Positions 1 to 63,615 of a stretch of DNA of 64,000 nucleotides are shown piece after piece. Within the stretch, counting starts at the first letter, position 1; each line of letters opens with the position of its first letter. The notes beneath the pieces are model-generated. The model searched no databases. It was not told the origin of the DNA and worked only from the letters and a program-made list of their open reading frames with translations. Origin of the DNA: Alphaproteobacteria bacterium (GTDB lineage: Bacteria > Pseudomonadota > Alphaproteobacteria > SHVV01); assembly GCA_965261735.1 (NCBI GenBank), contig OZ253470.1:1568001-1632000 (forward strand). Direction: 5' to 3'. A program made the position numbers and the translations under genes.

Positions 1-708
1 AGCGGCAACTTGGTCTTTCGCGCTACGAGACGGCCTTTCAAATTCTCCACAAGCTCCGCTCGGGCATGGTGCGGCCCAACCAAGACAGGATCGGTGGACA
101 GCCCAAGAACCATGTTGAGGTGGACGAAACCTGGGTTGGCGGGCGAACGCGTGGGGAAGGCCGTGGTGTTCACCACAAGGTTCCCGTCTCCTGTGCCATC
201 GAGGTGCGTCATCGAAAGCCGGGCACCAAGCTCGACAACCGGAAAGACGGACGCTATGCCGGACGCGTTCGGCTCGCCGTCGTGCTCGACCGTAGCGCCG
301 AGTCGCTCTGTGGGTTCGTCGAGAGCACCGTCGCGCCGCGATCGCTGATCGTTACTGACGATTGGAGCGGCTATGCTGGCCTCGGTAAGCGCGGCTATGA
401 GCACTTCGCTGTTGCCGAGTGTGGTGATCCAGAGGTTGCCGAGCAATACCTGCCGATCATCCATCTGGTTTTCGCCAACCTGAAGACGTGGCTGATCGAT
501 ATCCACCACGGCGTTAGCCACCAGCACCTACAAGCCTACCTCAACGAGTTCACCTTCCGCTTCAACAGGCGGTTCTACCCGTTCAACGCCTTCCGCTCAT
601 TGCTCGGCATCGCGGGCGACACCTCTGCTCCAACCTATGCCGAGCTTTACTCGGGAGAGTGGCGGCACCCTACATGTAGCGGTCATGGGCGTTAACCGGA
701 TAGGCAAG
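1..708 (+). mobile_element. IS1595-family element, copy 1 (5' part outside window); transposase ends at 695
   Basis: EVDETW/TDDW/YLNEF DDE motifs; near-identical to copies at 6835, 39142 and 45875; terminal IR AACCGGATAGGCAAG ends at 708. Confidence 0.93.
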
Positions 709-2864: not shown

Positions 2865-3524
2865 ATGAGCGAGCCCACTCCGGTGCAAAACGCGGTGCAG
2901 GCGCAAAAAGTCGCGGCCATTACCATCGCGGAATATGACCGTATGGCAGCGGCTTACCGTCGCGGCACGGCCGACCACGACGTCAGCCAGAACATCGCGG
3001 CCCTGCTCGAAGCAATCGAAGGCGCGGCGCCCCACATCATTCTCGATCTAGGCTGCGGGCCCGGCCGGGATCTCCGCCGGTTCACCGCGCTCGGCCACGA
3101 GGCGCTCGGCCTCGACGGATCGGCCGAGCTCGCCGCCATGGCGCGCGCCAAGACGGATTGTGAGGTGCTGCACCAAGACTTTCTCGCGCTTGACCTGCCA
3201 TCCGCCCGCTTCGACGGGATCTTCGCAAATGCCTCGCTGTTCCACGTGCCGAGCAGCCAGCTGGCCCGGGTCCTTGGCGACCTCGCCGCGACCCTCAAAC
3301 CCAGCGGTGTCCTGTTCTGCTCGAACCCGCGGGGCGACAACGAGGAAGGCTGGGCCGGTGGGCGCTACGGCTGCTTCCATGATCTCGAAACGTGGCGCGC
3401 CTACGTCACCGCCGCGGGCTTTCTGGAACTACACCACTATTATCGCCCGCCGGGCCGGCCGCGGGCGCAGCAGCCGTGGCTCGCCACGGTCTGGCGCAAG
3501 AGCTCGGTGAATCATGCCCAATAG
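2865..3524 (+). CDS. Class I SAM-dependent methyltransferase
   Basis: ILDLGCGPGRD motif I, FDGIFANASLFHVP. Confidence 0.9.
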   Translation: MSEPTPVQNAVQAQKVAAITIAEYDRMAAAYRRGTADHDVSQNIAALLEAIEGAAPHIILDLGCGPGRDLRRFTALGHEALGLDGSAELAAMARAKTDCEVLHQDFLALDLPSARFDGIFANASLFHVPSSQLARVLGDLAATLKPSGVLFCSNPRGDNEEGWAGGRYGCFHDLETWRAYVTAAGFLELHHYYRPPGRPRAQQPWLATVWRKSSVNHAQ

Positions 3525-52179: not shown

Positions 52180-53613
52180 GATCGTGTCCCGCGGAGTGGT
52201 GTAAGAGCGTTGCGCTCTACGCGGCTCCCGGCGGGTAGGGCCGGGACGTTCAGGCTGCCACGGTGGGCAGCGTGATGGGGACACCATCGCTCAGCGGAGC
52301 GATGGATTCCAGCGTCATGTATCTCCTTGAGACGGCCCACTCGTCGTTCTGCTCGAGAAGGATGGCGCCGACGAGCCGTGTGATGGCGGCTTCGTTGGGA
52401 AAGATACCGACGACGTTGGTGCGACGCTTGACCTCGGCATGGAGCCGTTCGATCGGGTTTGTGGAGTGCAATTTCTGGCGGTGCTCCCTGGGGAAGCTCA
52501 TGTAGGCGAGGACGTCGTGCTCGGCTTCGTCCATGAGAACTGCCAGCTTGGGCACCTTGGGCCTGAGCTGGTCGGCGACCTGGCGCCACTGGACCTTCGC
52601 GCTGTCGGCGTCCTCCTGGGCGAAGGCGGAGACGACGCGCCGGCCCTGGCGGCCGGCATGGGCCAGCAGGTTGCGGGCGAAGTGCACGCGGCAGCGCTGC
52701 CATGTGGCGCCGAGGATCCGGGTCGCGGCGGCCTTCAGGCCCTTGTGGTCGTCGGAGATCACCAGCTTCACGCCGCGCAGCCCGCGCCGGGCCAGCGAGC
52801 GCAGGAACTCGGTCCAGAAGGTCTCGGCCTCCGACGCGCCGATCGCCACGCCCAGGACCTCGCGGCGGCCTTGGTCGTTGACGGCCACAGCCACGGTCAC
52901 CGCGACCGAGACGATGCGTCCGGTCTGGCGCACCTTCACGTAGGTGGCGTCGAGCCACAGATAGGGCCAGTCGCCCTCCAGCGGTCGATCGAGGAAGCCG
53001 GTGACCTTATCGTCGATCTCGCCGCACAGCCTGGAGACCTGGCTCTTGGAGGCGCCCGACATCCCCATCGCCTGAACCAGATCGTCGACCGAGCGGGTCG
53101 ACACCCCCTGGATGTAGGCCTCCTGGATCACCGCAGCCAGCGCCTTCTCGGCCATCCGCCGCGGCTCCAGGAAGCCCGGGAAGTAGCTTCCCTTCCTCAG
53201 CTTCGGGATCTTCAGCTCGACCGTGCCGGCCCGCGTCTCCCAGGACCGGTCGCGGTAGCCGTTGCGATGGGTGATACGATCCGCCGAGCGCTCGCCGTGC
53301 CCGGCGCCGGTCAGGCCCTCAACCTCCAGTGCCATCAGCCGCTCGGCCGTGAAGCCGATCATCTCGCAAAGCAGATCGGCATCGGAGCTCTTCTCCAAAA
53401 GCGCGCGCAGGGTCATCATGTCCTGGGTCATCGTGGTTCTCCTTCGGGTCAGGTTGGTTTGCACTAGCCCAACCCTAAACCGGAACCGCGATGGCCTCCG
53501 CTGTGGATAGCCGGCTTGCCTACGCCAGACTCTCGGCGGTCGCTACGGCAAGCCGCCTACCCACAGCTACCAGAGGCTCCAACAACTCCTACACCACGTC
53601 CTGGGACACGACC
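52180..53613 (-). mobile_element. IS256 type A, copy 2 (transposase 52250-53464)
   Basis: Near-identical to 27962-29395; no TSD. Confidence 0.95.
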
Positions 53614-54409
53614 GCTTCGCGTTCCGCCGTGCCCGACGCAATGGTCACGCCGCCGCCGGCTGCCAGACCATGGCGGTTCTCCGTCAGCGCATGGCCCATG
53701 TAACACAGCTTGCTTTCCCGGCCATTACCCTTGCGATAAAGCCGGGCGTCCGGATCAGTGGTGCTTGCATGGGTCGCGTTCGAGCGTTTCTCGCCATGAA
53801 AATCCCGCGCGGCGTTGCGCCCCGATCCCCCGTCGCCATCGTCCTCACCTTTGGGACGAAAGCTCTTCATCGACGCCCAGGCCTCGATCAATGTTCCGTC
53901 TACCGAAAAATGATCCCGGCTCAATAGTCCCCCTACCTTGTGGTGCTGGATAACCCCCGCAAGCAGCTGCCCCGAAACCTCCGCCTCCAGAAGACGGTCC
54001 CGGTTGTGGCAGAACGCGCTGGCGTCCCACACGCCATCGTCCAGCCCAAGCCCCACAAACCAGCAAAACAGCATGTTGAAGTTTAGCTGCTCCATCAGCT
54101 GACGCTCCGAGCGGATCGAATAAAACGCCTGCAACAGTAACGCTCGAAGAAGCTTCTCCGGCGGGATCGATGGGCGACCCATGTGGGAATAAAGCGTCTC
54201 GAACTCCGAAGATAGAGACCCCAATACGTCGTTCACGATCTCACGGATCAGACGCAGCGGATGATCATCCGGAACACGCTCTTCCAAGTCTACGTAGCTG
54301 AATAAATTGCCACTGCTTTGATCTCGACCCCGCATGCCATCCTCCATCACTCGAAGGAATCACAGAATCATGTCACAACTGCAAAGGCGAGGACTTTTTC
54401 AGTAGCCTG
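53614..54409 (-). mobile_element. IS5/IS1182-like copy 2, truncated by IS256
   Basis: Near-identical to 1318-2113; CTAG flank at 54410-54413. Confidence 0.93.
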
Positions 54410-54413
54410 CTAG

Positions 54414-54650
54414 ATCAATTTGATGTTCGTTCCGGAGAACCGAGCCGTCGTTGGGAGGGCCGATGCAATAAATAGAAGGGACAACTGGCCGCGTCAGCAC
54501 GAATGGTTAGCCGCACATCTCAATGACCTGCATCGGGTTTTCGCGAACCGGGTCCGGGTACTCGATGCCGATGCTTGGCAGGACAACGACGACATAGAGG
54601 TGCTGCCGGAGCATCCAAAAGACCGGGGGAAAGAGAACGAGGCCGAGTGA
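54414..54650 (+). pseudogene. DUF4268-like C-terminal fragment
   Basis: NWPRQHEWLA..LNDLHRVF..RV. Confidence 0.6.
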
Positions 54651-54976
54651 GTAAGGCATTCTTCTTTTGTCTCACTAGTCGGCCGCGCACCGCGAGGGCC
54701 GCATAACTCCCGGCAAGGTCGCGCACCGCGCGGCCCGCCTGGCGGCCGCCGGAAGGTGGTGTTGCAGGGGGAAACGGCCCCGGGCGCGGATCCGAGGCCA
54801 GCGGTTTCATTGAGCTTCGTCCGGGTGCATGGCGGAGGGTATCGTCCGCTGGCCTGATCCCGGGGGGCATTGCCATGAAACAGTCGGCGGCCGGGTCTCG
54901 CGGCGAATGGCCGCTCAGACAGCGAGGGCGCAATTCGGGTGCGGTCCGGTTGTGCGGCCTGGACCCCGCAGCCGGG

Positions 54977-55189
54977 ATGCTCATACTCGACTGCGAGCCG
55001 TGCGGCCGCCATGGCCGCTACCGGCTGAAGGCGCTGATCGAGGTTTATGGACCCCGGGCCGGGCTTCCCGACATACGCCGCGTCCTCGTATCCAGGGGCG
55101 AATGCCATGGCTCCACCGATCCGCCGCGGCCATGTCATGCGTGCTTCAAGGGTCTTCATGATGCCCGCAGGCCGAGCCCATCCTGTTGA
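54977..55189 (+). CDS. Small Cys-rich hypothetical protein
   Basis: CEPCGR.GRY....LI..YG....LPD; start uncertain (54875 possible). Confidence 0.5.
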   Translation: MLILDCEPCGRHGRYRLKALIEVYGPRAGLPDIRRVLVSRGECHGSTDPPRPCHACFKGLHDARRPSPSC

Positions 55190-55218
55190 GACAGACGGAC
55201 TCTCCAGCCCCCGCCCGG

Positions 55219-55317
55219 CCGCCCGCACGGCGTTGGCGCCGACGCCGTCGGCCACGCGCCCGTGGCTCACGGTGGCGCCGCCGTGCGTTGCCACGGTCGC
55301 CAACGCCGTGCGGGCGG
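55219..55317. repeat. GC-rich hairpin with a 20-bp perfect stem
   Basis: CCGCCCGCACGGCGTTGGCG (55219-55238) and its reverse complement (55298-55317). Confidence 0.85.
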
Positions 55318-55507
55318 GCGGCGGGGGTCGATCCCGGCCTCAATGCCGCGTGCACCGCGAGCTCCGCAGACGCCCGGCGGCCGCATAACTCCTGCTGTTC
55401 CTGCTTGACCGGAATTGCCCTCTATCCCAACCGCCGGGTCTGGAAGAATCGCGCGTCCCGCGGCGGTGCCGCGTGCCCGCCCTCGCAATCGTCACAAGGA
55501 CACGGTC

Positions 55508-56362
55508 ATGATCGAAGTGATTCCCAACGGCAAGGCGCTAGGGGCCGAGATTCGCGGCGCGGATCTCTCCCGGGGGCTCGGCCCCGCGGACGTCCGCACG
55601 ATGCTGGACGCCTGGTCCCAACACCTCGTCCTGCTGTTCCGCGATCAGTTCATCTCCGACCCGGAACTGATCGGTTTAAGCCGCTCCTTCGGCGACCTGG
55701 ACCTCTGTCCGCCCAACGCGACGGGAAAACAGTACTCGGCGGAGCATCCGGAACTCATCATCGTTTCCAACGTCGTCGTCGACGGCGAGCCCCTGGGCAG
55801 CTTGGGCGACCGAGAGCTGCGCTGGCACACGGACATGTCCAACCACGCCGTGCCGCCCCAGGCCAGCATCCTGCATGCCCTGGAAGTGTCGTCGGAGGGC
55901 GGCGAGACCGAATTCTGCAACATGTACGCGGCCACGGCGGATTTGCCCGGGCGCTTGCGGGCGGCGGTCGAAGGCAAATGGGCACGTCAGGACGGCACGT
56001 ACGACAGCGCCGGCGCCCCTCAACGCGCGGTAGAGGTGGTGGGGGTGCGGACAGAGTCGCCGCACGCGCGGCATCCGCTGATGCGCAGGCATCCCGACAC
56101 GGCCCGGACGGTTCTCTATCTGGGGCGCCGTCCCAAGCAGTACGTGGTCGGCCTGGACCCGGAGGACAGCGAGGAACTGCTCGACGCGCTGTGGGCCCAT
56201 GCCACCCAACGGAAGTACGTGTGGACCCATGAGTGGCGGGTAGGCGACCTGATCGTCTGGGACAACCGCTGTGTCATGCACCGCCGGAATGCGTTTCCCG
56301 CGCACTCGCGCCGGACGATGCACCGAACTCAAGTGACCGGAAGCGCGATCGTCGCCGCCTGA
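55508..56362 (+). CDS. TauD/TfdA-family 2-oxoglutarate dioxygenase
   Basis: WHTD, GGETEF, W..GD..VWDNR..MHRR. Confidence 0.92.
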   Translation: MIEVIPNGKALGAEIRGADLSRGLGPADVRTMLDAWSQHLVLLFRDQFISDPELIGLSRSFGDLDLCPPNATGKQYSAEHPELIIVSNVVVDGEPLGSLGDRELRWHTDMSNHAVPPQASILHALEVSSEGGETEFCNMYAATADLPGRLRAAVEGKWARQDGTYDSAGAPQRAVEVVGVRTESPHARHPLMRRHPDTARTVLYLGRRPKQYVVGLDPEDSEELLDALWAHATQRKYVWTHEWRVGDLIVWDNRCVMHRRNAFPAHSRRTMHRTQVTGSAIVAA

Positions 56363-56814
56363 GACGGCCGTCCCCGCGGCCCGCCGTGCAGATCTACAAC
56401 GCCAACCTGCCGCGTGGTTTCCAGCTCTCCGTCGACCCCGCCCCGTCCCGGCCGCCGCCTCCTGGGCCGGGGACGCCGTGGACACCCTGCCTCCCGGCCA
56501 GATCCTGATCCAATACGCCGCCCGCGCGGACTGGCACGGCATCTCCAACCCCAGTCCGACCGCCCAGGGCCAGGCGAGGCTCTTAATATCTCGATACCGC
56601 TGGCGAGATCTTCACGACCCGGGTCTGGGTCGACTCCACCCGGCACCCCCGCGGCGACACCCTCGATAACGGGCTGGGTGTACCCCAGGTCAGGCCGCGT
56701 TGCGGCCCCTCATTGCCTCGCGCAGATCAGAGAGGTAGGGCCTGAAGGAACTGGGGACAACGTATCGAACTTTCATCCGCCTTTACGGTTCAATCTGCCC
56801 AGCCCGCCGATGGG

Positions 56815-57501
56815 TCAGCCCGAGAGTCTCACGTTCTGCGGGAACATGTTGCGCCGGGCCTCGTCATCCATCTCCGCCTTGAACGCGTGGCGGTCCTTCA
56901 GGGCGATCGCCCGCTCGGCTGCGGGACGCGCACTGATGTGATCCACCAGCCGTTTGAGGTTAGGCATTTTGGGAAAGGCGTCCTCGCCCAGGACAACAGG
57001 CACCAAGCGAGCCCAGCCCCACACCGCCATGTCGACAATCGTGTACGTCTCGCCCAGCATGTAGGAATTCTCTCCGAGATGCCGGTCGAGAATTCCGTAA
57101 TGACGTTCCGCTTCGAAGTTGTAGCGATTGATGGCGTAGGGAAGTTTCTCCGGCGCGTGATTCTTGAAATGAACGGCCTGTCCCGAATAGGGACCCACGC
57201 CCGTGGCTACGAACATCAGCCAGGACAGTAGCCGCGCCCGCATTTCCGACGTGTCTTCCGGCAGGAATTTTCCCGTCTTCTCGGCCAGATACAGAAGGAT
57301 GGCGTTGCTGTCGAACACAGTAACGCCGTCATCGACGATAGCTGGCGCCTTCGCATTCGGGTTGATTGCAAGGTATTCTGGCTGGTGCTGATCGCCGAGC
57401 CGGGTGTCGAGCGGGACCGGCTCATAGGCCAAGCCCGACTCTTCGAGGAACAAGGCCACCTTCATCGGATTGGGAGCGGCGTTATAGTAGAATTTCAGCA
57501 T
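56815..57501 (-). CDS. Glutathione S-transferase (YfcG-like)
   Basis: PNP.KV..FLEE, INPN.K.PAI.D, DSNAIL.YLAEK. Confidence 0.92.
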   Translation of the reverse strand: MLKFYYNAAPNPMKVALFLEESGLAYEPVPLDTRLGDQHQPEYLAINPNAKAPAIVDDGVTVFDSNAILLYLAEKTGKFLPEDTSEMRARLLSWLMFVATGVGPYSGQAVHFKNHAPEKLPYAINRYNFEAERHYGILDRHLGENSYMLGETYTIVDMAVWGWARLVPVVLGEDAFPKMPNLKRLVDHISARPAAERAIALKDRHAFKAEMDDEARRNMFPQNVRLSG

Positions 57502-57635
57502 GTCTAACCTTTCATTTTTTCTGGCTCGTTTGAAAGAACCCGGCGGGTTTCTCCGGATGCATCTTGGATAATACAACCTACTGTCGGTGGGACATCGATG
57601 TCAGTGATTCCACCAAGGCATGTCGGAGGACTTGA

Positions 57636-57911
57636 ATGTCAGAAATTGAATACTCCTGCTCAGCCCGTTCAGCGTATGCCTATCTCGGCTCAGCGCGCTT
57701 CATGGAGATCGCCCGCGCGGCGGGACGATGCATCGTCCATAAGCCCGTCGATTTGGACAAGGTTCTAGAGGGTGTTGGATATGCACCCTTTGTGAAACGC
57801 AAACCCAATCAGCGCGCCTACTTCTTCGCGGACGCGATCGCGGCGGCGGGCGTCGAACCGCTCACGCCCGCCCAGCTCAAGCTGGGCTACGGCGCGGCGA
57901 TCGCAGATTGA
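57636..57911 (+). pseudogene. 2-hydroxychromene-2-carboxylate isomerase/DsbA-like N-terminal fragment fused to an unrelated tail
   Basis: IEY.....S.YAYLG..R....A......KPVDL. Confidence 0.6.
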
Positions 57912-57913
57912 CC

Positions 57914-59062
57914 ATGACGCTCTCGACGCCGCCGTTCACGATCGGTATTGAAGAGGAATACTTCCTCGTCGATCCTGTCACGCGCGACTTGGCGACCGGG
58001 GTACAGCAAGCGGTCATCGAAGACTGCACGGACAGCCTCGACAGCGAAGTCGGCGGGATCGTCCCGGAGTTCCTACGTAGCCAGGTCGAGGTGGGAACGG
58101 CCGTCTGCCGATCCATGGCCGAAGCGCGCGAGAAGCTTTCCGCGCTTCGTCGCGCGGTCGCGGTAGCTGCCCGCAATAATGGCGTGGAACTGCTGGCCGC
58201 ATCGACCCACCCGATCGCAGACTGGAACAGGCAGGACCATACCGACAAGGAGCGTTACAACGTTCTGGCCGAGAACTTCCAGACGCTCGCGCAGCGCCTT
58301 CTCATCTGTGGAATGCATGTCCATGTCGGTGTCGAGGACAACGATCTGCGCATGGATCTGCTTGGCCAGATCACCTATTTCCTTCCGCATCTTCTGGCCC
58401 TGAGCACATCGTCGCCGTTCTGGCGGGGCCGAAACACCGGCCTGTTGTGTTACCGCCTGGCGGTGTTCGACGAACTGCCGCGCACCGGGCCGCCGGAGCG
58501 GTTCGAGAGCTGGGGCGAATACGAACGCCACGTCGGCATTCTTGTGAACGCGGCGCTGATCGAGGACGCCACAAGGATCTGGTGGGACATCAGGCCGCAT
58601 CCCATCTTTCCGACGCTGGAGATGCGGATTGCGGACATCGGAACGCGGATCGACGACACACTGACCGTCGCAGCCCTGTATGCGTGCGTGATCTCGGCGC
58701 TCCGGCGCCTTCGGCGCGGCAATCAACGCTGGCGGCAATACAGCAACATGCTGATTCGGGAGAACCGCTGGCTGGCCCAGCGCTACGGGTTCTCGCGCGG
58801 ATTGGTCGATTTCGGGATCGGCAGGGTCGTACCCTATGCGGACTTGTTGGAAGAGCTCATCGATCTGGTCCGCGAGGACGCCGAGGAGCTCGGTTGCATC
58901 GACGAAGTGCTGAACGCGCGCGAGATACTCGTGCGGGGAACCAGCGCGCACATGCAGGTGCAGGCCTACAACGAGGCGTTGTCACAGGGTGCGAGCGAGG
59001 CAGAAGCATTGCGCGGGGTCGTCGACCTTCTGCTCAAGGAGACCCTGAGGGGGCTCGAATAA
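57914..59062 (+). CDS. ybdK: Carboxylate-amine ligase / glutamate-cysteine ligase GCS2
   Basis: TIGIEEEY, CGMHVHVG, LALS.SSPFW.G, WWDIRP...PTLEMR. Confidence 0.9.
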   Translation: MTLSTPPFTIGIEEEYFLVDPVTRDLATGVQQAVIEDCTDSLDSEVGGIVPEFLRSQVEVGTAVCRSMAEAREKLSALRRAVAVAARNNGVELLAASTHPIADWNRQDHTDKERYNVLAENFQTLAQRLLICGMHVHVGVEDNDLRMDLLGQITYFLPHLLALSTSSPFWRGRNTGLLCYRLAVFDELPRTGPPERFESWGEYERHVGILVNAALIEDATRIWWDIRPHPIFPTLEMRIADIGTRIDDTLTVAALYACVISALRRLRRGNQRWRQYSNMLIRENRWLAQRYGFSRGLVDFGIGRVVPYADLLEELIDLVREDAEELGCIDEVLNAREILVRGTSAHMQVQAYNEALSQGASEAEALRGVVDLLLKETLRGLE

Positions 59063-59275
59063 ACCGCACGCTTGCCCGGCGGAGATCATGACCATCCATC
59101 CCGTGAGCACCCTCGTTAACAAGCCCACGAACGACGACCGCCGATGCGTCGAGCCCGTCGCCGCCTGAAGCCGGACGACGAGGCAGCTCACATGAGTTTG
59201 GTGAATCGCTGCCTGTCCGTGCTGATGTTGACCCTCCTTGCTGTGCCGCTGGCTCGGGCTGAACCACTGGCGCTA

Positions 59276-60424
59276 GTGGATTGATCGGAACGAAAGAGTC
59301 CGATTTGAGATTCCGTATTGTGCGGTGTCATGCGAGTCTGTGCTATGCGCACCGGCATCCATTTTACTGTCACGTCTGGCGACCGTCAGCGATTGCAAGC
59401 TATCGTCGCGGACCCGAAGAGCTCGCAGAAACATGTCTGGCGGGCGCGGATCATCCTGAAGAGCGACGAGGGGCTCGGGAACTCGTCGATCATGGCCGAG
59501 ACCGGCAAGTCCAAGACCTGTGTCTGGCGCTGGCAGGAGCGGTTCATGCACGAGGGTGTCAACGGCTTGCTTCGCGACAGGTCCCGTCCGCCTGGCAAAG
59601 CGCCGATCCCGCCGGAGCGCGTCGCCGAGATCGTCCGCCTGACCCAGCAAGCGCCGCCGCACGAGGCGACCCACTGGACGCTGCGCGCGATGGCGAAGGT
59701 TGCTGGCGTCGCGGCGTCGACGGTCCAAGCGATCTGGAAGGCCCATGGCCTCAGCCCGCACCGCTGGCGGCACTTCAAGCTCTCCAATGATCCCGCCTTC
59801 GCCGAGAAGCTCACAGATATCGTCGGCTTGTATGTCGATCCGCCGGCCCATGCCGTGGTGCTGTCGGTTGATGAGAAATCACAGATCCAGGCGCTCGACC
59901 GCACCCAACCCGGCTTGCCGATGAAGAAGGGCCGCGCCGGTACGATGACCTATGATTACAAACGGCATGGCACGACGACGCTGTTCGCCGCGCTCAACGT
60001 GCTGGACGGTACGGTCATCGCACAGAACATGCAGCGCCACCGCCATCAGGAGTTCATCCGCTTCCTCAACCGCATCGAGCGCGAGGTGCCGACGGACAAG
60101 GCCGTCCACGTCATCCTCGACAACTACGCCGCGCACAAGAAGGACAAGGTCCGCGCCTGGCTCGCCCGCCATCCACGCTGGACCTTCCACTTCACGCCAA
60201 CCTCGTGCTCGTGGCTCAATGCCGTCGAGGGCTTCTTCGCCAAACTAACGCGGCGCAGGCTCAAATACGGCGTCTTCCAATCCGTCGTCGACCTTCAGGC
60301 CGCCATCAACCGATTTGTCCGCGAATACAATGACGCAAACCCAAAACCCTTCATCTGGAAAGCCGACCCCGATCATATCATCGCCGCACGAAACAGAGGG
60401 TTCCAAACGTTGGAATCAATCCAC
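59276..60424 (+). mobile_element. IS630-family element (transposase 59345-60427)
   Basis: IRs GTGGATTGAT/ATCAATCCAC in CTAG context (TA duplication); VDEKSQIQAL, LDNY, SWLN.VE. Confidence 0.94.
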
Positions 60425-60607
60425 TAGGCCGGTTCTCAGCCGGCATCACCGAAGGCTGGCAAACGCGTGAATTCGAGGTGAGACCAGCTACCGGATCATG
60501 AAGCTGGACGGGCGGCGAGTGCTTGAGGGCGACAGCGTTTCTTCTGCCTCGAGCTTCTACCTCGAACGGGAAATCGATCTCGCGGCGACAAACAGGTGAC
60601 CCAGACC

Positions 60608-60805: not shown

Positions 60806-61027
60806 GTAGAAAGTTTCGTCACTTTCGTATATAAGCCCCTTTTGATAACATCTACGCCACTATGTTGTCGGTCGCAGCCCTCGCTGATGAAAATACAACC
60901 ATTGTGCAAATGGTCGCGTTCTCGGATCATTCTTGGCAACTCGAACGTAACTACCCAGGTCTGATTGGCCCGAGCGTTTGTATGTGAGGGATCGTGGGGG
61001 TCCGGGCTGGTAGCGGTGCCGGTGTTC

Positions 61028-62566
61028 TCAGAGGCGCAGTTGGGGGATTAGTTGCATCGGATCGGGATGCACCAGGGTCTGGAGGACGTTCCAGCCTTGC
61101 TTTCGGGCGGTGGCGATGACGGCACGCATTCTGGCGAAGTTGCAGGCACCCCTCTCGGAGCGGAAGCCACCGGAGATCTTCTGGCGCAGCTTGGCCATTC
61201 GGAGGTCACGTTCGGCCTCATTGTTCGTAAACGGCGTGCGCGGGTCGGTGAGGAATCGCAGGCATCCCTCCTTGTGCTTGCGGAGGCGGAGCGCGAGGTT
61301 ATGACCGATGCGGCGTTTCTTTCGTCCGCGCTTGCCGGTCCGGAGCGGCGGCTGCGCCTCGTGGAAGGCGATGGCGTGGTCGAGGATGCGGGCCCAGGCC
61401 CGCGAGATCCGGGCCACCAGGGAGGCGGGCGCGTCGCGGCCGTTCTCACGGGAGAAGCGGGTAGCCCTGTGTGCGCGCTCAAGGAGGCGGTGCATGCTCT
61501 TTGCCCAGTCTTCCTTCTCGATGTCGATCAGGGCCTGGAGTTCGCGCAGGTGATGGGCGTTGCAGGCGCCGTGGCGCACGCCCTTGAGGGTGAAGTAGGC
61601 GGCGTAATCGTCATGGATGAGGATGCCTTCGAGGTCCTTTTCGACATCGCCGCGTCCCGCGCCGATGCGCAGGACGGTCAGGAATGGGGTGCACAGCACG
61701 TGGAGCCAGCGGGTACGGGCGGCGATCCGCAGGCCGGTTTCGTCGAGGTGCTTGACCGGGACCGCTGTGCGGATCACGTCTGCGACATGGGCGAGGAAGG
61801 GCTCGAAGCGCCTGGCGGTTCGCCGGCCCATGGCGGTGATCGTGGCTGTGGAGATGGACACTGCGAAGAGGTCGCTCATGAGTTCGGCCAAGCGCTTCTC
61901 GGGAACGAACTGGGCGTACAGCAGGTAGCTCACCCAGGCGGTGATGCGTGGCCCGTACTGGACCGGGGCGGTCACGCCGTCCGCGAAGACGGCTCCTGTC
62001 ACGGTGGCGCAGGCGCCGCAGAGGCAGCGATGGGCGCGGTGTTCGGTGACCTCCAGGGGGCGTGGCTCGGGCACATCGAAGACCTGTCGACAGACGGGCG
62101 CGCGGTGACGGTCGGCGTCCGACAGCGGTGCGCCGCAGCCCGAACAGGCGGAGGGGTCATGATCCACAACATGGTCCGGGCTCTCGGTCCGCGCCAGCGT
62201 CGTTCCCTTGTGGCCCGGCTGGCCGCCGCTTGGCCTGCCGGACTTGCCGCGCTGGCTTCGGGTGCGCCTCTGGGTTCGGCTCTTCTTGCGCAGGCCGTCG
62301 CTGGCGGGCGGCTTGCTGCTGGTGGTGCTGTCAAGCGCCGCGCTCCGCTCGAGCTCGGCGATGCGGTCCCGCAGGGTCGCGTTCTCCCGCTCGAGCGCGG
62401 CATTCTCCCGGACGAGCGCCGTGGCCAGGCGCAACAGCCCCTGGCCCCATTCCCCGAAGGCCTTGACGACTGTGGTTGCGAAGGATGAGGGGTCAAGAAG
62501 ATCTTGCAGGCACGCGAAGGCCTCGTCATGGGCGGCGAGGTCCTCGTGCCAGCGCGACAGCGTCAC
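61028..62566 (-). CDS. IS66-family (ISBst12-like, single ORF) DDE transposase
   Basis: Coiled coil, SSKPPASD, GGQPGHKG, Zn finger, DETG, C.AH..REL, TNN.AERDLR..K..QKISG. Confidence 0.94.
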   Translation of the reverse strand: MTLSRWHEDLAAHDEAFACLQDLLDPSSFATTVVKAFGEWGQGLLRLATALVRENAALERENATLRDRIAELERSAALDSTTSSKPPASDGLRKKSRTQRRTRSQRGKSGRPSGGQPGHKGTTLARTESPDHVVDHDPSACSGCGAPLSDADRHRAPVCRQVFDVPEPRPLEVTEHRAHRCLCGACATVTGAVFADGVTAPVQYGPRITAWVSYLLYAQFVPEKRLAELMSDLFAVSISTATITAMGRRTARRFEPFLAHVADVIRTAVPVKHLDETGLRIAARTRWLHVLCTPFLTVLRIGAGRGDVEKDLEGILIHDDYAAYFTLKGVRHGACNAHHLRELQALIDIEKEDWAKSMHRLLERAHRATRFSRENGRDAPASLVARISRAWARILDHAIAFHEAQPPLRTGKRGRKKRRIGHNLALRLRKHKEGCLRFLTDPRTPFTNNEAERDLRMAKLRQKISGGFRSERGACNFARMRAVIATARKQGWNVLQTLVHPDPMQLIPQLRL

Positions 62567-63228
62567 GGGTCCTCGGCATCGACGGCCATCATGGCGGCCA
62601 GCACCGCGAGGCGTTCGCCCGCCGGCAAGGCCTTGTAACGCCGGCCCCAGTTGGCCGCCTTACGCTTGATGCGCTGGCGGTCGGTGAAGTTCCGGCCTGC
62701 GTAGCTCGCCCAATGCACCCGGTCGGGCGCGAAGTTGAACCACACGACCTCGGTCCGCACCTGGGCCTGGGTCGTCACCTGCAGCGCCAGACTGCGCCAG
62801 CCCGCCAGCATCTCGTCATAGAGCGCCGAGGGATGGCCCGAGACCATCACCTGGCAGGGCAGATCCTTGAGCAGGTCCAGGAGCGCGACATGGTCGACCT
62901 CCTCGAAGTCGAAGCGATAGCGCCGTGCCGAACGGCGGGTCGCGTGCAGATAGGGGGGATCGCTGTAGACCAGCTCCGGGCCCAGAAACGGGAACGAGGC
63001 CAAAAAGGCATGGGCACAGCCATGCACCAACTCGACCGGGTAGTCACAGGCAAAGGCCTCGAGCGCCTGCGCATCGCGGTCGATGCCGATCGAGCGCACG
63101 CCCGTTGGCTTGCGCTTCATCAGCGCACCGCCCCCCAGGTGGCTCTCGATGTAAACGCTGTGCGGCGGCATCAGCGCAATCAGCGCCTGGCACAGACCGC
63201 TCGTCGCCTTCGACCCGAAATATCCCAC
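62563..63228 (-). CDS. Small D12-class N6-adenine DNA methyltransferase
   Basis: Y.GSK, YIE.HLGGGA (motif I), VYSDPPY (motif IV); GTG start with GGAG RBS; GTGA overlap with the transposase. Confidence 0.88.
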   Translation of the reverse strand: MGYFGSKATSGLCQALIALMPPHSVYIESHLGGGALMKRKPTGVRSIGIDRDAQALEAFACDYPVELVHGCAHAFLASFPFLGPELVYSDPPYLHATRRSARRYRFDFEEVDHVALLDLLKDLPCQVMVSGHPSALYDEMLAGWRSLALQVTTQAQVRTEVVWFNFAPDRVHWASYAGRNFTDRQRIKRKAANWGRRYKALPAGERLAVLAAMMAVDAEDP

Positions 63229-63377
63229 GCGCCGCTCCCGTCACACGAGAGCGCAACCCATAGACGCCCGATTCTATGGAGTCAAGAGACGATCAACGAC
63301 GCGGCGGCGGAAACCCGGCCCCGGCGACCACCTACATCATCCTCTCGCGGTCAGGAGCGGGGTACCTGGGTAGTTAC

Positions 63378-63615
63378 ACTCGAACGCTACCTCGAAACCA
63401 TGGCGGAGGCCGGTCTGTCGGAGGTCCTGCTGCCGACCCTGCGGGGCGAGGCCGACGGTCGGCTATGGCGTTCGGTGCCAAACCGGCGTTGGTATTCCAA
63501 GCAACGGGGCGAGACGCCTGGCAGCCACGAGGTCGTGCTGATCCACCGCAAGACGGAGGATGCCGTTACGCAGCCTCGCCAGCAGTCGCGGACAGAGGCT
63601 CGGCCATCCCAGTGA
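63378..63615 (+). pseudogene. C-terminal remnant of a probable DNA methyltransferase gene (continues from 60840-60946) split by the IS66
   Basis: Frame VQMVAFSDHSWQLE|RYLETM...RLWRSVPNRRWY...EVVLIHR is continuous across the TSD. Confidence 0.55.

Follow-up and report, generated by a model that had tools for sequence, protein, structure and literature searches.

An IS66-family insertion sequence with a portable Upf31-like gene and a candidate self-repressing promoter

Why does an insertion sequence (IS) carry, ahead of its transposase gene, a gene for a protein that resembles a DNA adenine methyltransferase? The question is raised by an IS66-family element of 2431 bp in a 64,000-nucleotide stretch of the genome of an Alphaproteobacteria bacterium (assembly GCA_965261735.1, contig OZ253470.1, positions 1,568,001 to 1,632,000 of the forward strand). 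This whole stretch is hereafter called the window, and positions are counted from its first letter unless another sequence is named. Sequence comparisons indicate that the gene and its own promoter form a portable cassette common to several unrelated transposases, and that the encoded protein is more likely the self-repressor of the element than an ordinary DNA methylase.

A mobile IS66-family element

The element is bounded by perfect 14-bp inverted repeats and an exact 8-bp target-site duplication. Its two minus-strand genes, encoding proteins of 221 and 512 residues, overlap by 4 nt (GTGA), in which the stop codon (TGA) of the first and the start codon (GTG) of the second are combined (Table 1). 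The original prediction had read this architecture from the letters, and we confirmed it. The accompanying statement that the element holds only two intact open reading frames (ORFs) stands for the sense strand; it does not extend to the antisense strand, where long ORFs of 478 residues (61052–62488) and 379 residues (62476–63615) exist, neither with a Pfam match.

In the 5.03-Mb single-contig genome, we counted three full copies of the element, mutually 100% identical, whose 8-bp duplications all differ (GATAATTC, ACTCGAAC and CCTCCTGG). A fourth copy is partial (C1:2583885–2586259, locus L004): it comprises element positions 1–2375 only and has lost the last 56 nt with the promoter-proximal inverted repeat, the break being followed by unrelated sequence starting GGTAAACAG. 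Copy 3 (C1:4379400–4382129, locus L003) is inserted within tnpB of a canonical IS66 element, with TnpB_IS66 matches on both sides. The insertion site in the window also occurs in its empty state. A contig from the sponge-metagenome DNA run X1 joins position 60938 to 63378, skipping 2439 bases and keeping one copy of the duplication, at a low depth of 2.69. As the site is uninterrupted in this contig, the insertion is polymorphic in the sponge community of run X1.

To follow the element beyond this genome, we used the 80 closest public-genome loci, in which the methylase-like protein is 85–100% identical to that of the window. Both element ends were located in 72 of these loci, and 50 of the 72 two-ended copies are surrounded by identical 8-bp duplications whose sequence is different each time. 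At least 81% of the sampled words of the element are held by 20 runs from 8 studies; where such a run has no coded organism, its label is sponge metagenome. Eight of the 20 runs are recorded as RNA, with contigs that reach both IS ends, and hence neither transcription nor a transcript start can be read from them. The arrangement of repeats, duplications and identical copies is far beyond chance, and the element is a real, recently active IS66-family mobile element.

Membership of the IS66 family, which had also been predicted, is supported by matches of the transposase to PF03050 (DDE_Tnp_IS66, 2e-41) and to NCBIfam NF033517 (transpos_IS66, 285.7 bits; cut-off 180). Its domains are DUF6444 (residues 58–123), a weakly matching zf-IS66 (138–186) and DDE_Tnp_IS66 (202–474). 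Inverted repeats starting with GTAA and an 8-bp target duplication are features of the IS66 family, and the element has both. Canonical three-gene IS66 elements have tnpA and tnpB upstream of tnpC, whereas neither gene was found among the two sense ORFs here; the four TnpB_IS66 (PF05717) matches in the genome are all located outside the element, two of them flanking copy 3. As predicted, the methylase-like gene occupies this accessory slot; it is enclosed by the repeats and is mobilised together with the element.

The ISBst12-type subgroup of IS66 consists of transposase-only elements. With this subgroup the element shares an IS66 transposase containing DUF6444 and zf-IS66, GTAA ends, an 8-bp duplication and the lack of tnpA and tnpB. 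It departs from the single-gene layout in that a conserved 221-residue gene with its own promoter and candidate operator precedes and overlaps the transposase gene. The nearest plasmid-borne transposases are 36–48% identical to that of the window, among them the transposase of an IS66 element on Geobacillus plasmid pHTA426 (35.7% identity over 89% of the length). This Geobacillus element is assigned to the ISsaga class IS66/ISBst12 in the cited part of its description (PMC8024623). An affinity of the transposase to the ISBst12 group is loosely supported by these comparisons.

Linkage of the gene to different transposases

In all 80 closest genomic loci, which are of the W type, an IS66 transposase gene is located directly downstream of the methylase-like gene, with other insertions intervening in a few cases; 72 of the 80 have the 4-nt overlap. 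The assemblies that contain these loci are labelled Alphaproteobacteria, Dehalococcoidia, Longimicrobiales and Tectimicrobiota, and a genome often has many copies. The linkage is therefore no isolated capture. With a 71%-identical homologue as the seed, a scan of metagenomes yielded a further 80 loci, with proteins 67–73% identical to that of the window. Seventeen of these had less than 280 nt downstream and were undecidable; in the 63 decidable loci the next gene is always a transposase gene, of the IS66 family in 56 and of the IS1634 family in 7.

The IS66 transposases form four lineages, termed W, X, Y and Z, which are only 23–29% identical to one another, the window transposase included, whereas the methylase-like protein is at least 67% identical across them. 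Transposase-only IS66 elements from the same metagenome-assembled genomes, which lack the cassette, are 51–55% identical to the window transposase and cluster with it (FastTree support 0.993). Given the divergence of the lineages and these cassette-free nearest sisters, the cassette moved between IS lineages and did not simply co-diverge with one of them. Within the W clade, the ratio of non-synonymous to synonymous substitution rates (dN/dS) over 36 pairs is 0.08–0.30 for the methylase-like gene and 0.15–0.51 for the transposase gene; both genes are under purifying selection. The original prediction did not notice that one cassette of gene and promoter is common to unrelated transposases.

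The IS1634-linked loci extend this exchange to a second family. In L136, L126 and L142, the methylase-like gene is separated from an IS1634-family transposase gene (NF033559, 8e-74) by fragments of an X-type IS66 transposase gene. In L126, a 16-nt inverted-repeat pair (positions 16–31 and 3177–3192) encloses both genes, and an internal IS66-type end, GTAACTACTCACCC, is also present. L126, L130 and L136, on different metagenome contigs, have the left boundary CTTACTTTCCGCGCAT in common and three different flanks. The intact cassette therefore travels in another transposon family after its original transposase decayed. A second IS1634 lineage, with a transposase ~50% identical, is likewise linked to the cassette. 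In the protein tree, W-linked proteins form one clade (support 99). Proteins linked to IS1634 branch off at three places within the X-linked proteins, although the well-supported branches force one change only.

We also considered a simple nested insertion of an IS1634 element into an intact IS66 element. This was rejected, as the IS66 transposase gene is present only in fragments and the whole block is located inside IS1634-type inverted repeats. The loci linked to IS1634 are L126 (16–3192), L130, L136, L142, L161, L174 and L141. Separately, on the Sphingobium plasmid pCFD-1-3 (L182:1495–3654), a 49%-identical ‘DNA adenine methylase’ is followed ~200 nt later by the IS1380-like ISSp1 transposase gene, and this homologue recurs on many sphingomonad plasmids. 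The IS1380-like neighbour may represent a third transposase family beside the gene.

Across the phylum, 400 other genomes were sampled, which yielded 7 matches at E <= 1e-10 with identities no higher than 47%; the element is patchy and not phylum-wide. Literature searches, mostly at title and abstract level and with ISfinder and TnPedia outside their scope, returned no published account in which an IS66 or IS1634 element carries such a gene.

A promoter palindrome and a repressor relative

We next compared the sequences upstream of the gene. In 154 loci they extend to 110 nt or more, and these loci provided 92 distinct regions. The pattern TTGAC-N3-ATAG-N10-CTA[TG] is found in 88 of the 92 regions. 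The 10-nt spacing is constant, while the spacer itself and the surroundings of the palindrome vary freely (consensus CTTGACa.cATAG..........CTATgct). In this consensus, −35 and −10 elements can be recognised on either side of a 17-nt spacer, and the palindrome CATAG-N10-CTATG overlies the spacer and the −10 element as a candidate operator. The ATAG half is located where sigma-70 needs no sequence. Genome-wide, there are 7 palindrome sites, 4 of them in IS copies (genome positions 1631259, 2586197, 3749272 and 4381938), and 1 site of a reversed control pattern. One lone CATAG-N10-CTATGCTG site (C1:1264474–1264493, L184) has no −35 element ahead of it; it could be left over from another cassette or have arisen by chance.

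Ahead of the two closest plasmid homologues the motif occurs as well, singly in L087 and in two tandem copies in L086. In the latter (L086:3900–4000, Xanthomonas plasmid pCIX2779_1), two tandem ATAG-N10-CTATGCTGCAGG sites are located ahead of a stand-alone homologue on a conjugative plasmid. The ATAG-N10-CTAT motif is absent before three more distant plasmid homologues (L181, L182 and L183), and the conserved palindrome is absent from the inverted repeats and the terminal ~100 nt of the element.

Downstream of the promoter, a hairpin is predicted in the 5′ untranslated region (UTR). The same leader sequence folded from L006 gave −11.9 kcal/mol (z = −1.5). The leaders are not unusually stable as a set, with a median z of −0.5 and 7 of 78 distinct leaders below −2, and RNAalifold found no consensus structure among 74 leaders. 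The hairpin arms differ by type, with CTCTC/GAGAG in W-type and GATCCAA/TTGGATC in X-type leaders (leaders of L006 to L179).

The only studied relative of the 221-residue protein is Upf31 of plasmid pBP136, with 43% identity over residues 1–218, that is, full length (E 5e-64). By sequence, the protein groups with Upf31 and not with bona fide Dam enzymes. Like Upf31 of the IncP-1beta plasmids (pBP136 and R751), it has the DPPY and HLGGG motifs, a basic C-terminal domain, three aromatic residues and a palindrome between the −35 and −10 elements. Y180, F185 and W198 of Upf31 align with Y176, F181 and W194 of the window protein. At the same promoter position, members of the Upf31 clade have a palindrome of another sequence. 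As described in the part of the Upf31 study cited here (PMC11997246), Upf31 represses its own promoter ~50-fold, and repression is lost in the Y180A, F185A and W198A variants. The same part reports that GATC methylation was not seen in DpnI/MboI tests in a dam-negative host and that a single-molecule real-time (SMRT) signal was absent in the methylase-free strain ER2796; it describes the C-terminal domain as a predicted protein-binding module with KorB as the predicted partner. Upf31 differs from the window protein in being a plasmid backbone gene product within the KorA/KorB network, whereas here there is no KorB, the candidate operator has another sequence and the gene is coupled to a transposase gene.

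We propose that the element is an active ISBst12-like IS66-family IS, devoid of tnpA and tnpB, with an added regulator, and that the cassette throttles transposase synthesis by repressing itself. From the sequence patterns and the analogy to Upf31, we give this proposal about an even chance of being right. The cassette, consisting of the consensus-type promoter, the palindromic operator between −35 and −10 and the Upf31-family gene, would drive a single operon. The Upf31-family protein would bind its own operator and repress the methylase–transposase operon. Acting in trans, the repressor would lower the amount of transposase per copy as the copy number rises, and the GTGA overlap would tie translation of the transposase to that of the repressor. 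Self-repression would account for the constant place of the gene, for the conservation of the palindrome and for the service of one cassette to unrelated transposases.

The proposed logic, in which the element makes a trans-acting product before the transposase and this product limits transposase synthesis or activity, is that of IS1 InsA, Tn5 Inh and OrfA of the IS3 family. It differs from these in the methyltransferase fold, in a cassette common to unrelated IS families and in an operator located in the promoter and not in a terminal repeat.

Several points weigh against self-repression. The Upf31 data come from one study, in E. coli, on a protein 43% identical to ours, and for the IS-borne members we infer DNA binding, repression and the transcript start. 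The right half of the palindrome falls on the −10 element, and the arrangement CTTGAC-N17-CTAT is close to that of a consensus alphaproteobacterial promoter, so that the case for an operator rests mainly on the conserved left half. The −10 element of the window copy (TATGGG) is itself without the usual final T. In addition, self-repression does not account for the unfailing retention of the S-adenosylmethionine (SAM) and DPPY motifs. DPPY is found in all 104 distinct full-length IS-borne proteins and HLGGGA in 102 of them, as expected of an active enzyme; a pure repressor could do without either motif. Their conservation suggests that SAM binding is retained and that the protein flips an adenine or even methylates it. 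The target would in that case probably be a rare site, for example the operator, and not a frequent genome-wide motif, and the negative SMRT result for Upf31 would be compatible with such rarity.

Alternative functions and implications

The strongest alternative is that the protein works as an orphan N6-adenine methyltransferase whose target is short and frequent. It would then act epigenetically: by timing of transposition to replication via hemimethylation, in the manner of host Dam on IS10 and IS50, by protection from restriction, or by a change of the host methylome linked to copy number. We regard this as unlikely, although several observations speak for it. Besides the near-complete conservation of the two motifs and the purifying selection on the gene, residues E28, L31, G32, G34, D50, D90, P91 and P92 are invariant in a 26-sequence alignment. 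Like Dam and DpnM, which are alpha-group N6-adenine methyltransferases of the D12 class, the protein has an N-terminal GxK, the SAM-binding glycine loop, DPPY and a Rossmann methyltransferase fold. In the AlphaFold2 model (mean predicted local distance difference test score 76.3, predicted template modelling score 0.72), a Rossmann core is followed by two low-confidence C-terminal helices, 181–200 and 203–218, consistent with the extra basic C-terminal helix noted from the sequence. The top folds in Foldseek are EcoDam (4rtl_A, E 2.9e-7, TMq 0.53) and DpnM (2dpm), the EcoDam alignments taking up ~250 columns for 221 residues, and a sequence search of the PDB returned DpnM alone (E 0.012). A homodimer prediction with two copies scored 0.27 against a mark of 0.42, which weighs neither for nor against a dimer. 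Among 3790 relatives of ~220 residues, returned from 5.8 billion proteins searched, some are labelled ‘DNA adenine methylase’ by their sources.

Other features of the protein argue against an ordinary methylase. In the alpha-group order, the target-recognition domain is inserted before DPPY. Unlike Dam and DpnM, the window protein has only 40 residues from D50 to D90; the Dam target-recognition domain between motifs III and IV is therefore absent, in line with the predicted lack of room for it. The protein also has ~50 extra C-terminal residues and stays below the family thresholds: no Pfam family, PF02086 included, reaches threshold, and the match to TIGR00571 (Dam) scores 25.3 bits against a cut-off of 114.85, over residues 85–155 only. 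The label ‘adenine methyltransferase’ given in the original prediction was drawn from motifs, and as stated it was not supported; Upf31, the studied relative of the protein, is an autorepressor without detected methylation in the cited part of that study (PMC11997246). Two functions suggested with that label fared no better. For shielding of element DNA from restriction we found no support here, and as the termini contain no copy of the conserved palindrome, gating of transposition by methylation of the ends has no observation in its favour. Conservation of the promoter palindrome would also be left unexplained by an orphan methylase.

Somewhat less probable again is a portable epigenetic switch, in which the enzyme would bind its own CATAG-N10-CTATG site and N6-methylate an adenine within it. 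The methylation or hemimethylation state of the site would then set transposase expression independently of host Dam, and unrelated IS families (four IS66 lineages and IS1634) would have captured the cassette repeatedly, as it would make any transposase self-limiting in any host.

We consider a transposition cofactor improbable. In this case the C-terminal domain would bind the transposase, comparable to the predicted Upf31–KorB pairing, or transposon or target DNA, replacing the role of TnpA and TnpB. The location of the gene in the accessory slot, the translational coupling in 72 of 80 W-type copies and the protein-binding module predicted for Upf31 are consistent with this. However, one protein conserved at 67% identity or more serves IS66 transposases that are mutually 23–29% identical as well as an unrelated IS1634 transposase, which is hard to square with a specific protein–protein fit, and sister IS66 elements transpose without the gene. 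Least probable is a passenger with no role in the biology of the element, kept for host benefit or by hitch-hiking: homologues 45–55% identical do stand alone on conjugative plasmids, but within ISs the gene is fixed directly upstream of the transposase gene in every decidable locus (80/80 and 63/63), shares one promoter region with it, is under purifying selection at least as strong and was kept intact after the transposase was replaced.

The insertion is situated in an IS-dense neighbourhood (52250–60427 of the window, plus the element), adjoined by GCS2 and GST genes, both apparently whole (Table 1).

Table 1 Features of the element and its neighbourhood in the window
Feature	Position	Strand	Remarks
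Target-site duplication, left copy	60939–60946		ACTCGAAC; skipped by the empty-site contig (60938 joined to 63378)
Terminal inverted repeat, transposase-distal	60947–60960		GTAACTACCCAGGT; same ends in 72/80 related loci
IS66-family DDE transposase, 512 residues	61028–62566	minus	GTG start overlaps upstream stop codon
Upf31-like, Dam-fold methylase-like protein, 221 residues	62563–63228	minus	GTG start
Motifs of the 221-residue protein	residues 30–35; 50; 90–93		HLGGGA; D50; DPPY
C-terminal helices of the 221-residue protein	residues ~181 to 218		aromatics Y176, F181, W194
Predicted 5′-UTR hairpin	63234–63252	minus	3′ arm holds GGGAG Shine-Dalgarno sequence; weak evidence
Promoter-like site (predicted from sequence)	63257–63286	minus	CTTGAC(T) 63286–63280; 17-nt spacer; TATGGG 63262–63257; transcript start predicted near 63250
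Palindrome CATAG-N10-CTATG, candidate operator	63259–63278	minus	right half overlaps −10
Terminal inverted repeat, promoter-proximal	63364–63377		reverse complement of GTAACTACCCAGGT
Target-site duplication, right copy	63378–63385		ACTCGAAC
IS256-type (Transposase_mut) transposase	52250–53464		neighbour of element
DUF772 fragment	53589–54350		neighbour of element
IS630-like (DDE_3) transposase	59318–60427		neighbour of element

Insertion sequences usually consist of a transposase and its ends. Here, a third part, conserved and composed of a promoter, a candidate operator and a putative regulator with a methyltransferase fold, has been picked up as a module by different transposases and is multi-copy in sponge-associated bacteria. 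If the protein is an autorepressor, the cassette would represent a new route to the control of transposition copy number and would provide a function for a large set of genes named ‘DNA adenine methylase’ in databases. If it also methylates its own operator, the cassette would be a transposon-borne epigenetic switch. The link to Upf31 further ties an unexplained plasmid-fitness gene to what may be a much larger family of mobile-element regulators.

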